Below are positions 14,737 through 38,957 of a stretch of 64,000 nt of DNA, piece by piece. The translations under genes and the position numbers were made by a program. The number at the start of each line of letters is the position of its first letter. Position 1 is the stretch's first letter. Under the pieces are notes generated by a model. It was given only the letters and a program-made list of their open reading frames with translations, was not told the DNA's origin and did not search any database. This stretch comes from Candidatus Latescibacterota bacterium (GTDB taxonomy: Bacteria; Latescibacterota; UBA2968): contig JAYODI010000023.1 of NCBI GenBank assembly GCA_038279365.1, positions 1-64,000 on the forward strand, given 5' to 3'.

Positions 14737-15663
14737 TTATCCAAACAAAAACGTGCCCAAATACCGCTCACCCGTATCGCATAACACAGTAACAACCTTT
14801 TGATTGGGTTTCATCTCTTTGGCCACTTCCACGGCTGCATGCACATTTGCCCCCGACGATATGCCCGCCAACACACCTTCCTCTTTGGCCAACCGCCGCG
14901 CCATCTGCCGAGCCTCTGCATTAGACACTGCAATCACACGATCCAAAATTTCTTGATTTAAAATGGGTGGAATCATGCCGGCACCCAAACCATCTATCTC
15001 CGTAGGTCCTGGTGCACCACCAGACAATACGGCAGAATCTTGTGGTTCAACACCAACGATTATCACTTCTGGATTTGCACCTTTAAGCACCTCTCCAACC
15101 CCAGTGACCGTTCCCCCAGTACCCACTCCCGCAACAAATGCATCTGGTACACCATCCATTTGTTTCATGATCTCTTTGGCCGTTGTCTGTCGGTGAATCT
15201 CTGGATTGGCTTGGTTCTCAAACTGTTTGGGCATAAAACAAGCCCCATACTCGTCTTTCAAGTTTTGGGCTTTTTCAATGGTTCCCCGCATACCTTCATA
15301 GGCCGATGTTAAAACCACTTCTGCACCAAAAGCTTTGAGCAACTTGGTGCGCTCATCACTCACGCCCTCTGGCATTGTGATGACCAGCCGATATCCTTTT
15401 ACAGCCGCCACCATCGCAAGACCAATACCCGTGTTGCCACTTGTCGACTCAATAATGGTCATACCAGGTTTTAAAAGCCCTTGGTTTTCTGCGGCCTCAA
15501 CCATTGCCAAAGCAGTGCGATCTTTAACACTTCCAGCAGGATTAAAAAATTCTAACTTAGCCCAAATTTGGGCTCCGTTCAATGGCCCAACGCGATTTAA
15601 GCGCACCATTGGGGTGGCACCAATAAGATCTAAGATCGTCTGCCCAGTTCTCAAGTTATCCAT
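14737..15663 (-). CDS. cysK: cysteine synthase A (PLP)
   Basis: KLEFFNPAGSVKDR, ESTSGNTG, GVGTGGT, DTGERYL; likely start MDNLRTG. Confidence 0.9.
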   Translation of the reverse strand: MDNLRTGQTILDLIGATPMVRLNRVGPLNGAQIWAKLEFFNPAGSVKDRTALAMVEAAENQGLLKPGMTIIESTSGNTGIGLAMVAAVKGYRLVITMPEGVSDERTKLLKAFGAEVVLTSAYEGMRGTIEKAQNLKDEYGACFMPKQFENQANPEIHRQTTAKEIMKQMDGVPDAFVAGVGTGGTVTGVGEVLKGANPEVIIVGVEPQDSAVLSGGAPGPTEIDGLGAGMIPPILNQEILDRVIAVSNAEARQMARRLAKEEGVLAGISSGANVHAAVEVAKEMKPNQKVVTVLCDTGERYLGTFLFG

Positions 15664-15664
15664 A

Positions 15665-16099
15665 TCAAATCCGGAACATAAAATTTGCCTGTTGCATCTG
15701 CTGCTTTTTACATAAATCAGCAAATGTCACAGCAAATAAAACATCATTAATGGCGTTTTCAACCGCCAACCAAACATCTCTCAAAACATCTACTTCGGCA
15801 CCATCTGGAATACGTGCCTCACTTTTACCAACCAAATCTACAGGCCCTTCCAATGCGGCCAACACATCCCCAACAGAAACTTCCTCGGGTCGCTTAACAA
15901 GTTGGTGCCCACCTTTAGGCCCTCTTACACTGCGTACCACTCCAGCTTTACCCAATAAATTGAGCAACTGAACCAAATAAGCTTCGGGAATTTGTTGACG
16001 TGTCGCAATATCGGCACTCAAAATGGAACCATGCCCATAATGCAACGCCAAATCAAAAACTGCGCGCAGCCCATAATTGCCTTTGGCAGAAATATGCAT
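15665..16099 (-). CDS. Rrf2-family regulator (CymR-like, lacks the IscR Cys triad)
   Basis: YGLRAVFDLA...YLVQLL..L.KAG.V.SVRGPKGG. Confidence 0.9.
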   Translation of the reverse strand: MHISAKGNYGLRAVFDLALHYGHGSILSADIATRQQIPEAYLVQLLNLLGKAGVVRSVRGPKGGHQLVKRPEEVSVGDVLAALEGPVDLVGKSEARIPDGAEVDVLRDVWLAVENAINDVLFAVTFADLCKKQQMQQANFMFRI

Positions 16100-16127
16100 G
16101 CAAACCTCATAAAATCAGAAAGGAGTG

Positions 16128-16188
16128 AAAAAAGAGGATTGAAGAAACAGCATTCACCACGCTTCTGCCTTCTTTCATCTTCCTTCTC
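16128..16188 (-). terminator. long imperfect hairpin plus U-tract between the sulfur carrier gene and rrf2
   Basis: Minus strand AGAGGA...GGCAG...CTGTT...TCCTCT followed by a T-run. Confidence 0.45.
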
Positions 16189-16467
16189 TTAACACCCACC
16201 TGCAATTGCAGGTACTATTGTCATCTGATCGCCATCTTTCAGCGCAGAATCTGGGCCATCGAGAAACCGAATATCTTCTTCATTGACATAAATATTCACA
16301 AAACGTCGAATAGCACCCGATTCATCTGCAATTTTTTCTTTAATGCCACTGTGTTTTGCTTCTAAATTGTCAATAACCTCTCCCACAGTAGCACCTTCAA
16401 TAGCCACTTCGGCCTGATCATTGGTAAATTTGCGCAAAGGTGTTGGAATTCGAACAGTAACGGCCAT
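16189..16467 (-). CDS. MoaD/ThiS-family sulfur carrier (CysO-like), ends GG-C
   Basis: VTVRIPTPLRKFT...RRFVNIYVNEEDIRFL...IVPAIAGGC; SD AAGGAGG. Confidence 0.9.
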   Translation of the reverse strand: MAVTVRIPTPLRKFTNDQAEVAIEGATVGEVIDNLEAKHSGIKEKIADESGAIRRFVNIYVNEEDIRFLDGPDSALKDGDQMTIVPAIAGGC

Positions 16468-16496
16468 GTGAAACCTCCTTAAAATAATATTCAAAG

Positions 16497-17528
16497 TTAT
16501 CTTTCAATATAAAACGGTTCTGGTGGTTGCCACTGTGCCATACACAACAGCCGATCAACCAAGAGTTCAGGGACATCTAATGCAAATGCGGGCACTTGAG
16601 GCAAATTCTTGCGCATCAAGTCATCATATTCCGTAAGCACATCTGGCACCCTACGGTGATGTGCATCTGATATTAAAGCACCAGCATATTCACCACTCAC
16701 AATCGCCAAAGCAACACCACCACCACAAAAAGGCTCCGACAATCCTCCAGCATCCCCCACAAGCAACACACCATCATCTTGCATTTTTTTGAGCGGTCCA
16801 TTTACTGGCAACAAACCACCCGTGGCGCCCAAAATACCGTCATACACCTGCCCATTGGCAATTAAACGCCCCATAAAGTGATTGAGCCAATACTTGAGAT
16901 GGCGTGCATGCGCACGCAACAGTCCCACCCCAATGCGCGCCGTCTGACCACAGGGTACAAACCAAGCAATACCTGGCAAATCATCGGTGACATAATAGGT
17001 CAGCCACTCTTGTGCGCTTTTAATACCCACTTCATATTGCAATGAAGCATAAAAACGGCGGTTGGCCAACCCCAGTGAACGTCCGATAATCGAAGACGGC
17101 CCATCTGCTCCTAATAAAAACTGTGCGCCAAAAGAAGCTTCCAACCCGTTTCGTCGCCCTATTACCCCTGTTCCATCGCGCCTCAATACCAAGGCTTGGG
17201 CCAAATCGGCGCCAGCTTCTAAAGCATGAATGGCCAAATTTTTATCAAAACGCGTACGATCTAAAATACAACCAGGGGCCACAATTTCACGCATACGCCC
17301 CTGCCTATCAATAACTCGGAAACCATTTACAAGCTGAATAATGGCACTGTCATCAACATCTGTTCGCGTGCGAACCCATGCAGGCACATACCCAGCACAG
17401 CGGGGTGGTGTGCCAACCGAGCGACGACGATCAATGATCATGACAGATAAGCCACGATCAGCAGCCACGCGCGCAGCCGTTGCACCCGCAGGGCCACAGC
17501 CCACCACAATCAAATCAAAACGATCCAG
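16497..17528 (-). CDS. geranylgeranyl-reductase-family FAD-dependent oxidoreductase
   Basis: DLIVVGCGPAG, PPRCAG, LDRTRFD, GADG, VGDAGG; start uncertain (CTG 17528 or TTG 17513). Confidence 0.8.
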   Translation of the reverse strand: MDRFDLIVVGCGPAGATAARVAADRGLSVMIIDRRRSVGTPPRCAGYVPAWVRTRTDVDDSAIIQLVNGFRVIDRQGRMREIVAPGCILDRTRFDKNLAIHALEAGADLAQALVLRRDGTGVIGRRNGLEASFGAQFLLGADGPSSIIGRSLGLANRRFYASLQYEVGIKSAQEWLTYYVTDDLPGIAWFVPCGQTARIGVGLLRAHARHLKYWLNHFMGRLIANGQVYDGILGATGGLLPVNGPLKKMQDDGVLLVGDAGGLSEPFCGGGVALAIVSGEYAGALISDAHHRRVPDVLTEYDDLMRKNLPQVPAFALDVPELLVDRLLCMAQWQPPEPFYIER

Positions 17529-24390: not shown

Positions 24391-25155
24391 ATGCCAGCAA
24401 GAGTTATTGCCGTAGCCAATCAAAAAGGTGGTGTGGGCAAAACCACCACAGCGGTCAATTTATCCGCGTGTTTGGCGGCAGCAGAGAAAAAAACCCTGCT
24501 ACTTGATATGGACCCACAGGCCAATGCAACCAGCGGTTGTGGCGTGAGTATGGAAGAAGATACATCCAGCATCTACGAAGTTTTATTGCAAGAAAAACCA
24601 TTTAAAAGCATCATTAAAGATACCAAAGTGCCTTTTTTAAGCATTGCACCATCACACATTAGTCTGACGGGTGCTGAAGTTGAAATGGTATCTATTATTT
24701 CACGCGAACAACGCCTCAAATCAGCTCTGTTAAGCATTCGAGATGCATATGACTTTATCATTATTGATTGCCCACCCTCATTGGGGTTGCTCACACTCAA
24801 TGCACTAACGGGTGCAGACTCGGTGCTCATTCCCATCCAGTGTGAATATTATGCCCTTGAGGGTTTGGGAAAATTGCTCAACACCCTGCGCCTCGTACAA
24901 CGCCACCTCAACCCACAACTTCAAGTTGAAGGTGTGTTGCTCACCATGTATGATGGGCGCCTCAACCTCTCTCGACAAGTGGCAGAAGAAACCAAAGCAC
25001 ACTTTGGCGACAAAGTGTATAAAACCGTGATTGGACGCAATGTCAAACTCGGAGAAGCACCCAGTTTTGGCAAACCCATTATCCTTTATGACATCATGTC
25101 TTCCGGCGCACAAAGCTATATGAATCTCGCCGGGGAGGTCATCAACAATGGCTAA
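24391..25155 (+). CDS. parA: chromosome partition ATPase ParA/Soj
   Basis: NQKGGVGKTT, DCPPSLG, QCEYYALEG, EAPSFG. Confidence 0.95.
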   Translation: MPARVIAVANQKGGVGKTTTAVNLSACLAAAEKKTLLLDMDPQANATSGCGVSMEEDTSSIYEVLLQEKPFKSIIKDTKVPFLSIAPSHISLTGAEVEMVSIISREQRLKSALLSIRDAYDFIIIDCPPSLGLLTLNALTGADSVLIPIQCEYYALEGLGKLLNTLRLVQRHLNPQLQVEGVLLTMYDGRLNLSRQVAEETKAHFGDKVYKTVIGRNVKLGEAPSFGKPIILYDIMSSGAQSYMNLAGEVINNG

Positions 25156-26032
25156 ACGCAACGCCCTCGGCAAAGGTCTTGGTGCACTCATCCCTGGTGC
25201 CAATGACGACACCCACACGCCCACAGAAGAACAAGAAACCCCATCGGGTCGGCAAGTGATAGACATTGCCATTGAAGACATCGACCCCAACCCACACCAA
25301 CCGCGCACAGAATTTGACCCCAAAGCCGTTAGTGAACTGGCCCAGTCCATTCGCGAAAAAGGCATCTTACAACCCATTAGCGTGCGCAGATATGGAACGG
25401 GGTATCAACTGATTGCTGGCGAACGTCGTTTTAGGGCAGCCAAACAAGCCGAATTAGAAGTTGTGCCGGCACTGGTCATGGACATTGGTACCGACCAAGA
25501 GATGATGGAACTGTCGCTTATTGAAAACATTCAGCGCGAAGACCTCAACCCCGTTGAAGAAGCCAAAGCATATCGCATGCTTATTGACGAATGTTTTCTC
25601 ACACAAGAAGAAGTGGCCGAACGCGTTGGCAAAGACCGTTCGACGGTCGCCAACATGTTGCGTTTATTGGCTCTCCCAAAAGAAATTCTCGATGCCCTGC
25701 AAACAGGCCAAATATCATCAGGTCATGCACGCGCCCTATTGGGATTAGACGACCCAGAACTTCAAATTGCCATTTGCCAACAAACAGTTGCACAGGGTTT
25801 ATCGGTTCGCCGTGTTGAATCACTCGTGAAGGCCTACAAAGACGGCACGGCCAAAAAACCACAAAAAACACACACTTACAAAGACCCCAACATCCTCTCT
25901 CTAGAAGAAGATCTTCAACGGCAATTTGGCACCTCGGTCAATATTCATCGCCGAGGACAAAAAGGCAAAATTGAAATTGAGTTTTATAGCGATGACGATT
26001 TAAATCGCGTTCTGGACTTGATTCGCGACTAA
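25148..26032 (+). CDS. parB: chromosome partition protein ParB/Spo0J
   Basis: LGKGLGAL, NPHQPR, AGERRFRA, ENIQREDL, HTH. Confidence 0.95.
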   Translation: MAKRNALGKGLGALIPGANDDTHTPTEEQETPSGRQVIDIAIEDIDPNPHQPRTEFDPKAVSELAQSIREKGILQPISVRRYGTGYQLIAGERRFRAAKQAELEVVPALVMDIGTDQEMMELSLIENIQREDLNPVEEAKAYRMLIDECFLTQEEVAERVGKDRSTVANMLRLLALPKEILDALQTGQISSGHARALLGLDDPELQIAICQQTVAQGLSVRRVESLVKAYKDGTAKKPQKTHTYKDPNILSLEEDLQRQFGTSVNIHRRGQKGKIEIEFYSDDDLNRVLDLIRD

Positions 26033-26117: not shown

Positions 26118-26214
26118 GACCGGCAAGACAGGATACAAAATATAGTGAGATGATTGTATGCAAATTATGAGTTTATATTATAAATATTAATGCAATCCAT
26201 AAGCGAGGTTGGTT

Positions 26215-27897
26215 TTGATTGATCTGATAATAAACCGAGAAATAAATTTTAAAAATGAACTGCTATCAGGTTTAACTGTGGCACTTGCCCTTGTACCAGA
26301 AGCCGTGGCTTTTGCCTTTGTTGCGGGTGTTGAGCCATCTGTTGGTCTTTGGGCCGCATTTTTTGTTGGTTTCATCACCTCCCTAATAGGTGGCCGCCCA
26401 GGCATGATCTCGGGGGCAACTGGTGCAATGGCTGTGGTCATGACGGCATTTGTGATTCTCTATGGCATTGAATATTTGTTTGCAGCAGTCATTTTATGTG
26501 GGGTCATTCAAATTTTATGTGGGGTCTGCAAAATTGGCAAATTTATTCGTCTCCTGCCACACCCCGTTATGTTGGGTTTTGTAAATGGATTGGCCATTGT
26601 GATTGGGTTGGCTCAATTTGGTCAACTTAAAGAAAACCACCAAGTGATCTTTAACGAAACAGCTCACAAGTTTGAAATTGCGGCACAATGGATGAGTGGA
26701 AACAACTTATTGACAACAATCGCCCTGATCTTGATAACCATGGGCATTATTAACCATTTCCACAGAATCACCAAAGCCGTTCCGGGCACATTGGTTGCCA
26801 TTGTAACCGTTACCCTTATGACTTACTTTTTGCCCATTGATACCGTGACAGTGAATGACACCGTTGAGATACAAAATGCAGTGGCGGCAGAAAAAGCTGA
26901 AAAAATGCGCCTCTTTGAATTAGAAAAACCTAACCTACTCTATTCCGAAGTCGATAAACGCGGCCACGAAATCGCAGCCAGCACCATTCCAATTCCTCAA
27001 ACAGTATCTGATCGTCAAGCAGGCAGTTTCCAAATTCCCAGTATTCCGTTTACACTCCAAAGCTTGTGGATCATTCTCGGGCTCAGTGTCACCCTGGCAG
27101 CCATTGGACTCATCGAATCGCTTATGACACTGACGCTTATTGATGAATTAACAGAAACAGATGGCAACGGCAACCGCGAATGTATTGGACAGGGTGTTGC
27201 CAATATGGTTGCAGGTCTTTTTGGAAGCATGGGGGGTTGTGCCATGATTGGCCAATCCATGATTAATATCCGTTCAGGTGGACGCCATCGTTTATCAGGC
27301 ATATCTGCCGCTCTCTTTCTGCTGGCATTTATCGTTTTTCCACCCTTATGGTCTTGCATTGGTCTGATCCCTGTGCCCGCACTCATTGGCGTGATGTTTA
27401 TTGTGGTCATTGCCACGTTTGAGTGGACCAGTTTGCGCCTGTGGAACAAGATTCCCAAAAGTGATTTTTTTGTTATTGTGGCAGTATCTGGCATTACCGT
27501 ACTTTTTGATTTGGCTATTGCCGTTGCTTCGGGGGTGATCATATCCGCCTTGGTATTTGCTTGGAAAAAATCACAACGCATCGATGCCGAAGTGCGCCAA
27601 GAAAATGGCGTTACCATTTACGAACTCAACGGTTCACTGTTCTTTGGTGCCATAACCTCATTTAAAGAAATATTCACCCCCACAGAAGATTCAGACCAGG
27701 TGGTCATCGAATTTAAAAACTGTCAGGTATATGACCATTCGGCATTGGAAGCCATTAACAACCTCTGCGAAAAATATCGCGACTTGGGCAAAACAGTCAT
27801 CTTAAGGCACCTGTCACCAGATTGCCGAAAAGTGTTGAGCAAAGCCGATGCAATTCTTGAAGTGACAATAGAAGACCCCAAATATCACGTTGCCTAA
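26215..27897 (+). CDS. SulP-family anion permease with STAS domain
   Basis: SGLTVALALVPEAVAFA, GGRPGMISGATG, GGCAMIGQS, C-terminal STAS; start approximate. Confidence 0.9.
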   Translation: MIDLIINREINFKNELLSGLTVALALVPEAVAFAFVAGVEPSVGLWAAFFVGFITSLIGGRPGMISGATGAMAVVMTAFVILYGIEYLFAAVILCGVIQILCGVCKIGKFIRLLPHPVMLGFVNGLAIVIGLAQFGQLKENHQVIFNETAHKFEIAAQWMSGNNLLTTIALILITMGIINHFHRITKAVPGTLVAIVTVTLMTYFLPIDTVTVNDTVEIQNAVAAEKAEKMRLFELEKPNLLYSEVDKRGHEIAASTIPIPQTVSDRQAGSFQIPSIPFTLQSLWIILGLSVTLAAIGLIESLMTLTLIDELTETDGNGNRECIGQGVANMVAGLFGSMGGCAMIGQSMINIRSGGRHRLSGISAALFLLAFIVFPPLWSCIGLIPVPALIGVMFIVVIATFEWTSLRLWNKIPKSDFFVIVAVSGITVLFDLAIAVASGVIISALVFAWKKSQRIDAEVRQENGVTIYELNGSLFFGAITSFKEIFTPTEDSDQVVIEFKNCQVYDHSALEAINNLCEKYRDLGKTVILRHLSPDCRKVLSKADAILEVTIEDPKYHVA

Positions 27898-30504: not shown

Positions 30505-31671
30505 ATGTCTATGAAAACACCCATTTATCTCGACCATCATGCCACAACCCCAGTTGACGAACGGGTGTTAGAGGCTATGTTGCCTTATTTTAAGGACCAC
30601 TTTGGCAATGCGGCCAGTCGCACACATACATTTGGATGGGAAGCAGAGGATGCCGTTGATCGGGCGCGTGAACAAATAGCCAAACTCATCAACGCACAAC
30701 CCAAAGACATCATCTTTACCAGCGGTGCCACAGAATCGGATAACCTCGCCATAAAGGGTGTGGCAGCTGCCTCAGAAAAACCCTGCCACATCATCACCCA
30801 AACCACAGAACATCATGCCGTGCTCGACCCTTGTAAAGCACTCGAGCGACAAGGCGTTGAAATCACAGTCTTACCCGTTGACCAACATGGGCAAATCAAC
30901 CCAGATCACATTCAAAACGCGATAAAAGACAACACAGCGCTCGTATCTGTCATGATGGCCAACAACGAAATTGGCACCCTTCAGCCGCTCACCGAAATTG
31001 GCAAACTGTGCCGCAAAAACAACATCTACTTTCACACAGACGCCGCCCAAGCCATTGGCAAATGCCCCATTGATGTCGAAGCCATGCACATTGATCTGCT
31101 CTCCATTTCTGCCCACAAAATGTATGGCCCAAAAGGTGTGGGCGCATTATATGTACGCAGCCGCCCTCGGGTGCGTCTCATTGGCCAAATGGACGGTGGT
31201 GGGCACGAAAAAAGCATGCGCTCTGGCACGCTCAATGTACCTGGCATTGTTGGCTTGGGAGAAGCCTGTGCCATTGCTCAAAAAGAAATGGCATCTGAAT
31301 CGACGCGTATCAAACATTTACGCGATCGCCTCCAGCACAAACTCTTTGAATCACTCGACCGCATTCAACTCAATGGCCACCCCGAACACCGCTTAGATGG
31401 CAACCTGAACATCAGCTTTTCGGCAGTGGATGGTGAAAGCTTATTAATGGGTTTGCGCGACATTGCCCTCTCATCAGGTTCTGCTTGCACATCGGCGTCT
31501 CTTGAACCTTCTTATGTGCTAAGAGCCATTGGCGTATCACCCGACCTGGCCCAAAGCAGCATCCGTTTTGGCATTGGCCGATTTAACACAGAAGAAGAAA
31601 TCGACCACACCACCAACCGCGTCATCGAAGAAGTAAACCGATTACGAGAGATTTCGCCGAATTATAAATAA
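30505..31671 (+). CDS. iscS: cysteine desulfurase (IscS type)
   Basis: [37 protein letters not shown]. Confidence 0.92.
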
Positions 31672-31674
31672 AAA

Positions 31675-31754
31675 TCAGTCACAAGTCGCAGGTCACCAGG
31701 TCACTGGTCTTTAGATTTTGACCTGCGATTTGCAGACCTGTGACTTGCGACCTA
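31675..31754. repeat. inverted array of degenerate heptamer repeats
   Basis: ACAAGTC GCAGGTC ACCAGGTC ACTGGTC ... TGACCTG CGATTTG CAGACCTG TGACTTG CGACCTA. Confidence 0.75.
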
Positions 31755-31769
31755 TTCTTTGGAGTATTC

Positions 31770-32588
31770 ATGCAAGCCCCCAAACAACCTCAAGCGCCAC
31801 GTCTCCTGCCAGGTGTGAAGCATATTATTGCCGTATCCAGTGGCAAAGGTGGCGTGGGCAAAACCACGGTGAGTGTAAACCTATCCATTGCACTGGCCAA
31901 AACAGGTGCTACCGTCGGGTTGCTTGATGCCGATATTTATGGTCCAAACGTGCCCATGATGCTTGGTGCCAAACGTCAGCCTGACACCGATGGTGAAAAA
32001 ATCATCCCCTTAGAAGCCCACAACATCAAACTCATGTCGTTGGGCCTTATTACAGATGAAAACACACCCATTATTTGGCGTGGGCCCATTGTGGGCAAAG
32101 TCATTCAGCAATTTATGATTGACGTCCTTTGGGGAGAACTGGACTTCCTTATTGTGGATCTGCCTCCGGGCACAGGTGATGCCCAACTCACTTTGGCGCA
32201 AACGGTGCCCTTATCGGGCGCAGTCATCGTGACCACGCCACAAAACGTGGCTCTTGAAGATGTGCATCGAGGCATTGAAATGTTTCGCAAAGTCAATGTG
32301 CCCATCTTGGGGGTTGTAGAAAACATGAGTTATTTTTTATGCCCATGTTGTGGAGACCGCACCCCGCTCTTTGGCGATGGTGGTGGCTTACGCATTGCCG
32401 ATACATTTCGCCTGCCCCTATTGGGGCAAATTCCCATCCAACCCGAAATACGCATCGGTGGCGACGAAGGACAACCCATTGCCTTGGGCGATAATGAACC
32501 CGCACGTGCATTTGCAGACATGGCGCAAACACTCAAAAACATGTTAGGTGAAACGGCACAAGGAATGCCAGAGATCACCATTGTATAA
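31770..32588 (+). CDS. mrp: Mrp/NBP35 (ApbC) Fe-S carrier ATPase
   Basis: SGKGGVGKTT, DADIYGP, DLPPGTGD, ENMS..CPCC. Confidence 0.92.
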   Translation: MQAPKQPQAPRLLPGVKHIIAVSSGKGGVGKTTVSVNLSIALAKTGATVGLLDADIYGPNVPMMLGAKRQPDTDGEKIIPLEAHNIKLMSLGLITDENTPIIWRGPIVGKVIQQFMIDVLWGELDFLIVDLPPGTGDAQLTLAQTVPLSGAVIVTTPQNVALEDVHRGIEMFRKVNVPILGVVENMSYFLCPCCGDRTPLFGDGGGLRIADTFRLPLLGQIPIQPEIRIGGDEGQPIALGDNEPARAFADMAQTLKNMLGETAQGMPEITIV

Positions 32589-32690
32589 TCCAACACTTGC
32601 GAACAAAAACCAAATTCCTTACATTTGTTATCAACAAACTCTGAAATCAATTGTTCAGTGTTTTTCACGATCAACCGAAAGGCAACCGCA

Positions 32691-33866
32691 ATGGGATTTG
32701 AAACACTCGTTGCCCAAGCCGAATCGACGACCACTGGGTTAACCCCCAAAGAAGCCCAACAAAAGCTTCAAAGTGGTGACACGGTTCTGCTTTTGGACGT
32801 GCGCGAGCGCGAAGGTTATTCGAAGGGATATATCTCGGGGGCACAAAATGTACCCCGCGGATTCCTTGAACTTCGCATTGAAGGCATTGAAAACAGCCGC
32901 AATGCCAACATCATCGTTTATGGGGCACCAGGCCAAGGGCCTTTGGCAGCACGAGCACTGCAAGATATGGGATATCAAAATGTATCGTATATCAAAGGTG
33001 ATTACGACGCTTGGATTGTTGCCGGTTATGAAACCGAACGCGACCGTCCATTGAGCAAAGCCGAAGTACAACGTTTTTCTCGCCACTTGCTCATTCCCGA
33101 AGTGGGTGAAAAAGGCCAAGGCAAATTGCTCGACGCCAAGGTATTGCTCATTGGTGCAGGAGGCTTAGGCAGTCCAACCGCCCTCTATTTGGCGGCAGCA
33201 GGTGTGGGCACCCTCGGCATTGTGGATGCCGATGTGGTCGATGTGACCAATTTGCAACGCCAAGTGTTACACGGAACATCGGACGTGGGCCGTTTAAAAG
33301 CCGTTTCGGCCTATGAAACGCTCAAAGAAATCAACCCAGGTTGCAATGTGGTTCCCCACACAGAATATCTCACATCTGCCAACGTGATGGACATTTTGCC
33401 ACATTACGACATTGTGGTCAATGGCTGTGACAACTTCCCCACACGCTATTTGGTAAACGATGCGTGTGTGTTCTTGAACAAACCCATTGTAGATGGCAGT
33501 ATCTTCAGATTCGAGGGCCAGGTTACGGTGTACTCGTGCGATAAGGAGGGGCCCTGTTATCGTTGCCTCTACCCATCGCCGCCACCGGCTGATCTGGCAC
33601 CTTCTTGAGACGAAGCAGGTGTCTTGGGCGTTTTGCCCGGCACAGTTGGCCTGGTCCAGGCCACAGAGACAGTAAAAATGATTCTCGGTCAAGGTACATC
33701 ACTCGTTGGCAGGTTGCTGATGTATGATGCCTTGAGCACAAGCTTCAACACCTTTAAGGTGCGTCGTGATCCCAATTGCCCGGTCTGTGGAAACAATCCC
33801 ACCATCACCGAGCTGATTGACTACCAAGCATTTTGTACTATGGATCATGGCGAGGCCGCAGATTAA
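32691..33866 (+). CDS. moeB: rhodanese-like + MoeB/ThiF E1 adenylyltransferase, probable selenoprotein (UGA at 33606)
   Basis: RFSRHL, GAGGLG, TNLQRQ, CYRC, APS-TGA-DEAGVLGVLPG in one frame, then RRDPNCPVC; joins the track ORFs 32625-33608 and 33624-33866. Confidence 0.88.
33619..33643 (+). promoter_or_regulatory. candidate SECIS hairpin of moeB
   Basis: GTG-TC-TTGGGC-GTTTT-GCCCGG-CAC; loop G lies 21 nt after the UGA. Confidence 0.6.
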
Positions 33867-33884: not shown

Positions 33885-33922
33885 TAAAGGGGTAGAACCG
33901 AGATAGGTTCTGCCCCTTTTTT
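33885..33922 (+). terminator. terminator after moeB
   Basis: AAAGGGGTAGAACC/GGTTCTGCCCCTTT followed by a T-tract. Confidence 0.85.
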
Positions 33923-37747: not shown

Positions 37748-38266
37748 ATGCATATGAACATCAAATATTACCCAATTCTTTTTTTCTGCTTGATATCTTT
37801 GTGGGGATGTGGCAACCCAGCCAAAGACTTGCCCAAAGAAAATGGCCTAAGCATTCGCCCTGCAACCGCCGAACAAGTGCTTGGTGCAATAGAAAATGCC
37901 AAAGGCAATGTGGTATTGGTCAACTTGTGGGCAACGTGGTGCCAACCTTGTGTAGAAGAATTTCCAGACATCATGGCACTCCACAAAAAATACAAAGACC
38001 GTGGCTTGAAAATTATTTTTGTTTCTGCTGACTTCGAAAACCAAACCGAAGTTGCAAAAGCCTTTCTTCAAAAACAAGGCGTAGACTTTGCCACCTATCA
38101 AAAATCGGGCAAAGACATGGCCTTTATCAACACTTTAGACGAACGTTGGTCGGGTGCATTGCCCGCTACTTGGATTTATGATGCAAGTGGCAACAAACGC
38201 CACTTTTGGGAAGGCAAAAAAGACCACGTGCATTTTGAAAAAGCCATATTAGATGCAATGGAGTAG
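37748..38266 (+). CDS. TlpA-family thioredoxin-fold lipoprotein
   Basis: Lipobox LWGC; NLWATWCQPC; GALPAT. Confidence 0.88.
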   Translation: MHMNIKYYPILFFCLISLWGCGNPAKDLPKENGLSIRPATAEQVLGAIENAKGNVVLVNLWATWCQPCVEEFPDIMALHKKYKDRGLKIIFVSADFENQTEVAKAFLQKQGVDFATYQKSGKDMAFINTLDERWSGALPATWIYDASGNKRHFWEGKKDHVHFEKAILDAME

Positions 38267-38321
38267 CTGTTCACGCAATTCAACAAACAACAGCCGGGAA
38301 ACATATAGAGGAGAATGTCGC

Positions 38322-38957
38322 ATGAAGAACAAACTAACAATGGGTTTCATCGCGCTGGCTTTGGCGGTTGGCATCGGTTTTTCGATGGGAAACAGCGTTG
38401 AAGCTGGCAATGCATTAGACCTCAATGCCAAAGCACCCAAAGCCGACGTCAAAATGAAAGGTGTTGACGGGGCTTGGCACACCATCCAAGGTGTTGCAGG
38501 TGAAAAAGGCACACTCGTTTTGTTTTCGTGCAATGCCTGCCCCTGGGTCAAAAAATGGGAAGATCGCATCAGCAGCATTGGCAACGAATATCAGCAAAAA
38601 GGCATTGGCGTGATCATGATCAATTCCAATGATCCTGCCAAAGTAGCCGAAGACGGCTTTGAAGAAATGGTTGCACGCACCAAAGCCAAAGCTTTTGGTT
38701 TTCCTTATGTTGTAGATGCCACCTCCGAAGTGGCCCGTGCATTTGGTGCCACACGCACCCCCGAAGCCTTTCTCTTTGATGCCAAAGGCAAGCTGGTCTA
38801 TCACGGTGCCATTGATGACAACGCCTCAGATGCCAAAGCCGTTGAAGTGCCCTATTTGAAAAATGCACTCAATGCGGTCATTGCTGGCGAAGCCATTCCC
38901 GCCGCCAAAACCAAAGCCCTCGGTTGCAGCATTAAGTTTCACAACGAAGATTCATAA
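38322..38957 (+). CDS. secreted AhpC/TSA-like redoxin
   Basis: Signal peptide; FSCNACP, FGATRTPE, YHGAIDD, GCSIK. Confidence 0.88.
   Translation: MKNKLTMGFIALALAVGIGFSMGNSVEAGNALDLNAKAPKADVKMKGVDGAWHTIQGVAGEKGTLVLFSCNACPWVKKWEDRISSIGNEYQQKGIGVIMINSNDPAKVAEDGFEEMVARTKAKAFGFPYVVDATSEVARAFGATRTPEAFLFDAKGKLVYHGAIDDNASDAKAVEVPYLKNALNAVIAGEAIPAAKTKALGCSIKFHNEDS

Follow-up and report, generated by a model that had tools for sequence, protein, structure and literature searches.

The stretch of DNA analysed here (the window) comprises 64,000 nucleotides, positions 1 to 64,000 of the forward strand of contig JAYODI010000023.1, from the assembly GCA_038279365.1 of a Candidatus Latescibacterota bacterium. 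At positions 32691-33866 of its + strand it carries the complete gene of an E1 enzyme of the MoeB/ThiF type, which has a degenerate rhodanese domain N-terminal to its MoeB/ThiF adenylation domain and is predicted, from its translation and its Pfam and NCBIfam matches, to encode a selenoprotein. The gene consists of a single 391-codon frame from the ATG at 32691 to the TAA at 33864-33866, with one internal stop, a TGA at 33606-33608 (codon 306), which direct translation places in the context PPADLAPS-TGA-DEAGVLGVLPG. The second CxxC motif, C363-P-V-C366 (33777-33788), lies in frame downstream of this TGA. An earlier note on this DNA had described one frame running through the TGA and the CPVC motif to the stop codon ending at 33866, split in two by the open reading frame (ORF) caller, and the translation agrees on both counts: the mechanical ORF list cuts the gene into a 327-residue piece with a TTG start (32625-33608) and an 80-residue piece (33624-33866). 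Orthologue alignments begin at residue 1-3 of the 391-codon frame, which favours the ATG at 32691 over the TTG at 32625, and a Shine-Dalgarno-like GAAAGG can be read in the sequence 8 nt before this ATG (32677-32682, + strand). At a distance of 20 nt past the TAA, and not after the TGA, the sequence contains an intrinsic terminator made up of a 14-bp stem and a T run (33886-33919, + strand; up to 33927 for the feature as a whole).

The rhodanese-homology domain spans residues 18-109 (32742-33017, + strand; Pfam) and the ThiF/MoeB adenylation domain residues 129-365 (33075-33785, + strand), where the PF00899 profile is covered completely, from position 1 to 238 of 238, with 276.7 bits. A PF00899 search of the whole genome puts the domain at the same coordinates and counts 1 TGA within it. 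Alignments to 6yub, 1jw9 and 1zud locate the glycine-rich loop G155-x-G-G-x-G160 and the zinc motifs C289xxC292 and C363xxC366 in this domain. With NCBIfam NF006444 (PRK08762 MoeB; cut-off 449) the protein scores 505.8 bits, its residues 4-384 being aligned to positions 4-385 of the 387 in the profile. The gene is that of an intact MoeB/ThiF-type E1.

In HMMER alignments, residue 306 falls on Cys202 of Chaetomium Uba4 (6yub; the column holds K in 6yuc and 6z6s, which are C202K variants), on Cys187 of Escherichia coli MoeB (1jw9) and on Cys184 of E. coli ThiF (1zud, 1zfn). Judged by these alignments, residue 306 is the crossover-loop catalytic cysteine position of E1 enzymes. According to the accessible part of PMC7527816, C202 of Uba4 is the crossover-loop cysteine and forms a thioester with Urm1, which is then attacked by the rhodanese persulfide; for ThiF, the available text of PMC12596934 describes an acyl disulfide between Cys184 and ThiS.

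Selenocysteine machinery and the TGA/TGC column

The UGA at 33606-33608 (+ strand) is very probably a selenocysteine (Sec) codon, assigned to residue 306 from the alignments to MoeB C187, ThiF C184 and Uba4 C202 and from a Sec/Cys column among homologues. The genome is a metagenome-assembled genome (MAG) of 6.03 Mb in 199 contigs, 98.5% complete and with 7.4% contamination. A search for selA, selB, selC and selD, which the earlier note had called for, found all four together on contig C34, where selA, selB, selD and tRNA-Sec form one cluster (C34:31297-36920), each above its curated cut-off. The matches reach 506.6 bits for selA, 378.9 bits for selB (cut-off 242) and 366.7 bits for selD (cut-off 125; C34:35750-36673, locus L013), and the tRNA-Sec was found with Rfam (68.1 bits) and with ARAGORN, which calls it SeC with anticodon tca. 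Given the one in-frame TGA in selD, the SelD of this organism is itself probably a selenoprotein. SelA was detected in 40 of the 41 relatives searched, including every genome with a Cys-type E1, and the Sec trait is thus order-wide.

An orthologue of the E1 gene is present in 41 of 41 relatives searched, and a codon alignment was built from 36 full genes of these relatives. The 18 TGA-bearing orthologues (three from g1, 14 from g5 and one from g6) all share one TGA column, and the remaining 18 (g2, g3, g4 and family f2) all have TGC in it. Aligning homologues to look for Cys/UGA alternation, a check proposed with the original observation, therefore gave a strict TGA/TGC exchange in a single column, 18/18 versus 18/18. 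The frame runs open to a normal stop in each of the 18 TGA forms. In a wider alignment of 116 rows, the Sec column is TGA in 21 and Cys in 95. A scan of the phylum covered 168 Latescibacterota genomes, 131 of which have an orthologue at E<=1e-90; an internal TGA occurs in 24 of these 131 (3/3 in g1, 20/21 in g5 and 1/1 in g6). The missing g5 genome, G019, has just a 49-residue end fragment at a contig edge and was left without a Sec/Cys state, and the orthologue of G009 lies in two pieces. Genome G104 was considered as a further Sec form and rejected, its TGA being the terminal stop and its site TGC. In several orthologues (e.g. L026, L035, L042 and L043) TGA is the ordinary terminal stop, hence the codon is not reassigned.

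The 18 Sec forms of the relatives fall into one clade of a 45-row maximum-likelihood tree, with a support of 96 in the Shimodaira-Hasegawa-like approximate likelihood ratio test (SH-aLRT), nested among Cys forms. A distant MAG (L080, 55% identical) has an independent TGA in the same column. Paired Sec and Cys forms are 70-74% identical and alike in synteny, and the rhodanese Cys is missing from both.

We also scanned metagenome contigs of the Joint Genome Institute (JGI) for a TGA followed by G-x-x and then by E-A-G-V-L-G-V-L-P-G in any codons. This TGA context is carried by 91 metagenome stretches, 80 of which were fetched. Both architectures include TGA forms: of the 78 classified, 40 have a C-terminal rhodanese domain, 37 have an N-terminal one and 1 is unclear. 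On a FastTree phylogeny of 139 N-terminal-rhodanese rows, five Sec/Cys changes are most parsimonious and at least three are forced by well-supported branches.

Eleven bases, TGAGACGAAGC (entry at 33609-33616, + strand), do not vary among the 19 Sec forms taken from genome and genome_contigs loci (L026-L042, L080). The residue after Sec is Asp in this clade and in the independent L080 and is mostly Ala in Cys forms; in the metagenome Sec forms it is A, G, D or E. The Asp and the invariant bases after the UGA may reflect an effect of decoding context or an adaptation at the protein level.

Selection on either side of the TGA was estimated by the Nei-Gojobori method as the ratio of nonsynonymous to synonymous substitution rates (dN/dS) in ten pairs of Sec forms, one pair per side being saturated. 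Among the estimable pairs, dN/dS is 0.024-0.142 over 82 codons after the TGA and 0.049-0.094 over 302-303 codons before it. Purifying selection is the same on the 85 codons that follow the TGA as on those that precede it, and the downstream decay in relatives that the earlier note had named as a sign against its reading was looked for and is absent.

Two RNA libraries from salt marshes, each of a different study, contain contigs that match the gene at 100%, presence in an RNA library being no proof of transcription. Record 4 of contig X11 (33512-33670) spans the TGA with 0 differences. Record 2 of contig X10 (33592-33838) likewise keeps the TGA with 0 differences and, as it starts 14 nt before the TGA, was not counted as bridging. 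The DNA runs X5 and X6 gave no match over this stretch, which is not proof of absence.

A hairpin downstream of the UGA codon

The bacterial selenocysteine insertion sequence (SECIS) is described, in the accessible part of PMC1088965, as a hairpin shortly 3' of the UGA whose small apical loop contains a G. The window has a SECIS-like hairpin with such a small G-containing loop just 3' of the UGA (33621-33643, + strand), in which the arms 33621-33629 and 33635-33643 enclose the loop GUUUU (33630-33634), with -9.7 kcal/mol in RNAfold. The loop G is 21 nt after the A of the UGA, and the stem contains one C.C mismatch, 33623/33641. The earlier note had pointed to a G-initiated loop at this distance, and comparison bears it out, the geometry being kept among the Sec forms. 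A second small hairpin, UGGCCU/AGGCCA (33647-33663, + strand), lies right 3' of the first and, to judge by its pairing in Sec versus Cys forms, may extend the SECIS.

Across the two-helix structure, 98.2% of the cells are paired in 15 distinct Sec rows versus 72.2% in 18 Cys rows. The first helix alone has 97% of its cells paired in Sec forms versus 75% in Cys forms, and the second 100% versus 67.6%. Sec and Cys forms encode an identical peptide over the first helix (GVLGVLPG) and differ by V/I in the second, which coincides with Val (Sec forms) or Ile (Cys forms) in the peptide GL(V/I)QA. For the same peptide, VLGVLPGT, the mean folding energy is -15.6 kcal/mol in Sec forms versus -8.7 kcal/mol in Cys forms.

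With the metagenome forms, the comparison comprises 76 distinct Sec segments (62 from metagenomes and 15 from genome or genome_contigs loci, one being common to both). In 73 of the 76, the hairpin loop begins 20-21 nt after the UGA and has a G in its first two bases. Two hairpin registers occur, CCUGGG/CGUGCU/CCCGGG and the window type GGGC/GUNNN/GCCC. About half of the metagenome TGA forms (loci L151-L230) have a C-terminal rhodanese domain (MoeZ-like), and nearly all of these have GTCCTGGGCGTGCTCCC(G/A)GG after the TGA, a string that corresponds to a register other than that of the window. The mean minimum free energy (MFE) is -13.0 kcal/mol in the 76 Sec segments versus -9.6 kcal/mol in 57 Cys segments that encode the identical peptide, with equal GC content (0.69 and 0.70). 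One Leu codon has G as its third base in 76/76 Sec forms versus 31/57 Cys forms. The direction of the difference is clear, with constraint on synonymous sites in the TGA forms only.

Rhodanese domain, sulfur carriers and neighbouring genes

The catalytic Cys column of the rhodanese domain is occupied by Gly78 (32922-32924), and the domain has no C-x5-R active-site loop. The loop is one residue shorter, reading Y-G-A-P-G-Q-G-P versus Y-C-A-G-G-N-R-S in homologues. Over 116 rows the column contains G in 52 and C in 64; every form from this order (families f1 and f2), whether Sec or Cys, is among the Gly rows, and distant homologues keep C-x-G-G-x-R-S. Among the metagenome N-terminal-rhodanese Sec forms, 27/29 keep the rhodanese Cys and the two Gly forms are Latescibacterota-like. 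A strict coupling of a dead rhodanese domain to Sec was considered and rejected on these two grounds, the Gly of the f1/f2 Cys forms and the Cys of the 27 metagenome Sec forms. The C-terminal rhodanese loops were read by eye (e.g. IYLYCYKGKRS) and left uncounted, the motif pattern having missed 27 of 35 rows. Because Gly replaces the catalytic Cys, the enzyme's own rhodanese domain is probably unable to carry a persulfide. A stand-alone rhodanese ORF of about 160 residues (C31:71504-71836, locus L045) is 34% identical to the N-terminal domain of the E1, recurs in most of the relatives searched and might serve as a persulfide carrier in trans.

This gene is the sole PF00899 match in the genome (1 match out of 33 candidates in the whole-genome search). 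The genome has four small-carrier genes of PF02597 (ThiS family). One is a MoaD (contig C53; TIGR01682, 77.5 against a cut-off of 66) and adjoins MoaE, another adjoins a molybdopterin-binding oxidoreductase subunit, and a third is a weaker match. The one within the window, a small sulfur carrier of the MoaD family (MoaD/SAMP-like; 16189-16494, - strand; PF02597 65.8 bits; TIGR01687 52.5 against a cut-off of 49.5), is a candidate substrate. A CysK-type cysteine synthase (14737-15723, - strand; TIGR01139, 426.8 bits), an Rrf2 regulator (15665-16099, - strand) and a flavoprotein of the geranylgeranyl-reductase family (16497-17513, - strand) are found beside it. These four genes form a cluster at 14737-17513 (- strand), which may constitute a cysteine pathway that depends on a carrier (CysO-like) and is served by the Sec-E1.

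Upstream of the E1 gene, profile matches and synteny identify a cysteine desulfurase of the IscS subfamily (30505-31671, + strand; 603 bits with NF010611, cut-off 548) and, between IscS and E1, a P-loop Fe-S carrier of the Mrp/ApbC type (31740-32588, + strand; PF10609, 332.5 bits), so that IscS lies two genes upstream of E1. The IscS-Mrp-E1 order is kept through the order, IscS directly abuts E1 in other Latescibacterota, and it is absent beside E1 in Binatia-type loci. Further upstream lie a ParA (AAA_31/CbiA) and ParB pair (24391-26032, + strand) and then a sulfate permease of the SulP family that has a STAS domain (26209-27897). Two adjoining thioredoxin-fold genes of the AhpC/TSA-Redoxin type are found downstream, at 37748-38266 and 38253-38957 (+ strand), in different frames.

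Proposed role of residue 306 and alternative explanations

We consider it highly probable, from the signals in the sequence, that this is a genuine selenoprotein gene with Sec at the catalytic cysteine position. The view taken in the earlier note, of an intact selenoprotein and not a pseudogene, is supported by the Sec machinery, the TGA/TGC column, the selection downstream and the conserved hairpin. In a pseudogene or truncated enzyme, the UGA at 33606 would terminate translation after 305 residues, before the second CxxC, and what follows would be a decaying remnant. Translation table 11 does read the codon as a stop and the ORF list does split the gene, which is all that favours this account; a dN/dS after the TGA (0.024-0.142) similar to that upstream, the frames that run on to a normal stop in each of the 18 TGA forms, the retention of the TGA across three genera, the location of the terminator after the TAA and a truncated product that would lack half of its Zn site make it extremely improbable. 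An error of sequencing or assembly, the true codon being TGC or TGT, would need a single base, since TGA is one base from TGC, and no other point speaks for it. The same TGA occurs in 24 genomes, in 91 metagenome stretches and, with 0 differences, in X10 and X11, the contigs from RNA libraries, so that the chance of such an error is vanishingly small.

Readthrough might also insert another amino acid (Cys or Trp), by near-cognate or suppressor decoding or by loading of Cys on tRNA-Sec when selenium is scarce. Sequence analysis cannot tell the inserted residue, and homologues function with Cys at this position. However, many orthologues end in TGA as their ordinary stop, so that the codon is not reassigned, the SECIS-like hairpin is maintained by synonymous choice only in the TGA forms, and the full Sec kit is present, with a selD that itself has an in-frame TGA; we judge insertion of another residue to be very unlikely.

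Several points weigh against the selenoprotein reading or limit its reach. Insertion of Sec is deduced from sequence signals and machinery and not from selenium in the protein. Folded as a single sequence, 33600-33680 (81 nt) is no better than shuffles (z -0.99; 32/200 as good), and the significance of the hairpin therefore rests on comparison and not on energy alone. Of all the Sec forms, this genus has the weakest hairpin, with one C.C or U.C mismatch and -9.7 kcal/mol, an energy within the span of -3.8 to -12.3 kcal/mol seen in Cys forms. Covariation among 19 Sec forms is insignificant (two pairs are double-sided and 61/500 shuffles reach the score) because these forms have too little diversity. 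The conserved peptide itself fixes most of the hairpin stem, and as the compared sequences are related, the Mann-Whitney p-value overstates the evidence. As Cys187 of E. coli MoeB is dispensable, residue 306 need not be important for catalysis. Finally, as the genome is a MAG, the only E1 means the only one among what was assembled.

If the UGA encodes Sec, SelB with Sec-tRNA(Sec) would bind the mRNA hairpin 33621-33643, Sec would be inserted at the UGA at 33606, and the ribosome would go on to the TAA ending at 33866. The enzyme would adenylate the C-terminal glycine of carriers of the MoaD/ThiS family, en route to thiocarboxylates, and would probably serve all four carriers, because it is encoded by the sole ThiF-family gene found in the genome. 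By analogy with ThiF Cys184 and Uba4 Cys202, Sec306 would attack the carrier acyl-adenylate or acyl-persulfide to give a selenoester or an acyl-S-Se adduct, which would then be resolved to the thiocarboxylate. The sulfur would most likely come from the IscS encoded two genes upstream, since the rhodanese domain of the enzyme seems unable to carry a persulfide. Under selenium scarcity, a truncated product of 305 residues may be made, as for any bacterial selenoprotein.

Two further proposals, which we hold jointly and regard as rather doubtful, concern the role and the origin of the Sec residue. As the rhodanese Cys was lost in this Latescibacterota clade while the crossover-loop Cys became Sec, Sec306 may have taken over both jobs, receiving sulfane sulfur from IscS as Se-S and delivering it to the acyl-adenylate in a single-selenol relay. 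The peptide GVLGVLPG, for its part, may inherently encode a hairpin at SECIS distance and so be a hot spot for repeated Cys-to-Sec switches. If the single-selenol relay is correct, the sole E1 would make molybdenum-cofactor synthesis and all other carrier-dependent sulfur pathways depend on selenium.

The adenylation domain aligns to that of Chaetomium Uba4 (6yub) with E 8.5e-62, residue 306 falling on the thioester Cys202, and the C-terminal-rhodanese layout of Uba4, MOCS3 and MoeZ is found in 40/78 classified metagenome TGA forms. In contrast with these proteins, the domain order is reversed here, with an N-terminal rhodanese domain that lacks the persulfide-carrying Cys, and the gene reaches 399.9 bits with the MoeZ profile NF005902, against a cut-off of 647. 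E. coli ThiF and MoeB share the fold, the Zn CxxC pairs and the crossover-loop Cys column with the present enzyme, but they are single-domain Cys enzymes with one carrier each, whereas the present enzyme has an extra degenerate domain, a predicted Sec and probably several carriers. The layout is that of NF006444 (PRK08762), with an N-terminal rhodanese domain and MoeB, whose distant Cys-form members occur in Binatia, Myxococcota and other Latescibacterota; the present protein differs from it by the putative Sec at 306, the change of the rhodanese Cys to Gly and the shortened loop.

The earlier note was correct that Sec-containing MoeB is a reported family, as far as the accessible parts of PMC1088965, PMC2398784, PMC9312934 and PMC13188914 go. 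In the first of these (Zhang, Fomenko and Gladyshev 2005), 'Molybdopterin biosynthesis MoeB protein' is one of 15 new selenoprotein families from the Sargasso Sea, with 11 sequences; the second, from 2008, gives 19 MoeB selenoprotein sequences in the Global Ocean Sampling (GOS) data, with the Sec region in pfam05237; the last two, reviews of 2022 and 2026, list 'Molybdopterin-synthase adenylyltransferase MoeB' (PF00899/COG0476). MoeB is also listed as a known selenoprotein family in the Olavius study (PMC1976440). As described in the available text of these sources, the published MoeB selenoproteins resemble the present one in being ThiF/MoeB E1 enzymes with an in-frame UGA versus Cys in homologues and a SECIS just downstream, and the pfam05237 MoeZ/MoeB Sec region of the GOS set is consistent with the column found here, a comparison made by description and not column by column. 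Differences are the occurrence in Latescibacterota, the N-terminal rhodanese domain without its catalytic Cys and the status as sole ThiF-family gene. Latescibacterota are not mentioned in the accessible part of the 2026 review, and among the papers listed by a full-text literature search none pairs 'Latescibacter' with 'selenocysteine' in its title or abstract. The family has been known for two decades, and the loss of the rhodanese Cys, the sole-E1 status and the two-register SECIS are modest additions to it.

As gene callers cut the enzyme in two, a whole Latescibacterota clade would seem to be without an intact MoeB, and its genomes would be wrongly inferred to be incapable of molybdenum cofactor synthesis. 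Because the Sec/Cys pairs are 70-74% identical, share their synteny and both lack the rhodanese Cys, they offer a clean natural experiment on what selenium adds at the cysteine of the E1 crossover loop, a residue whose function in MoeB is still under debate. These bacteria of estuaries and salt marshes would depend on selenium for the only sulfur-carrier-activating enzyme found in them, which would tie their molybdoenzyme and sulfur-carrier metabolism to the supply of selenium.

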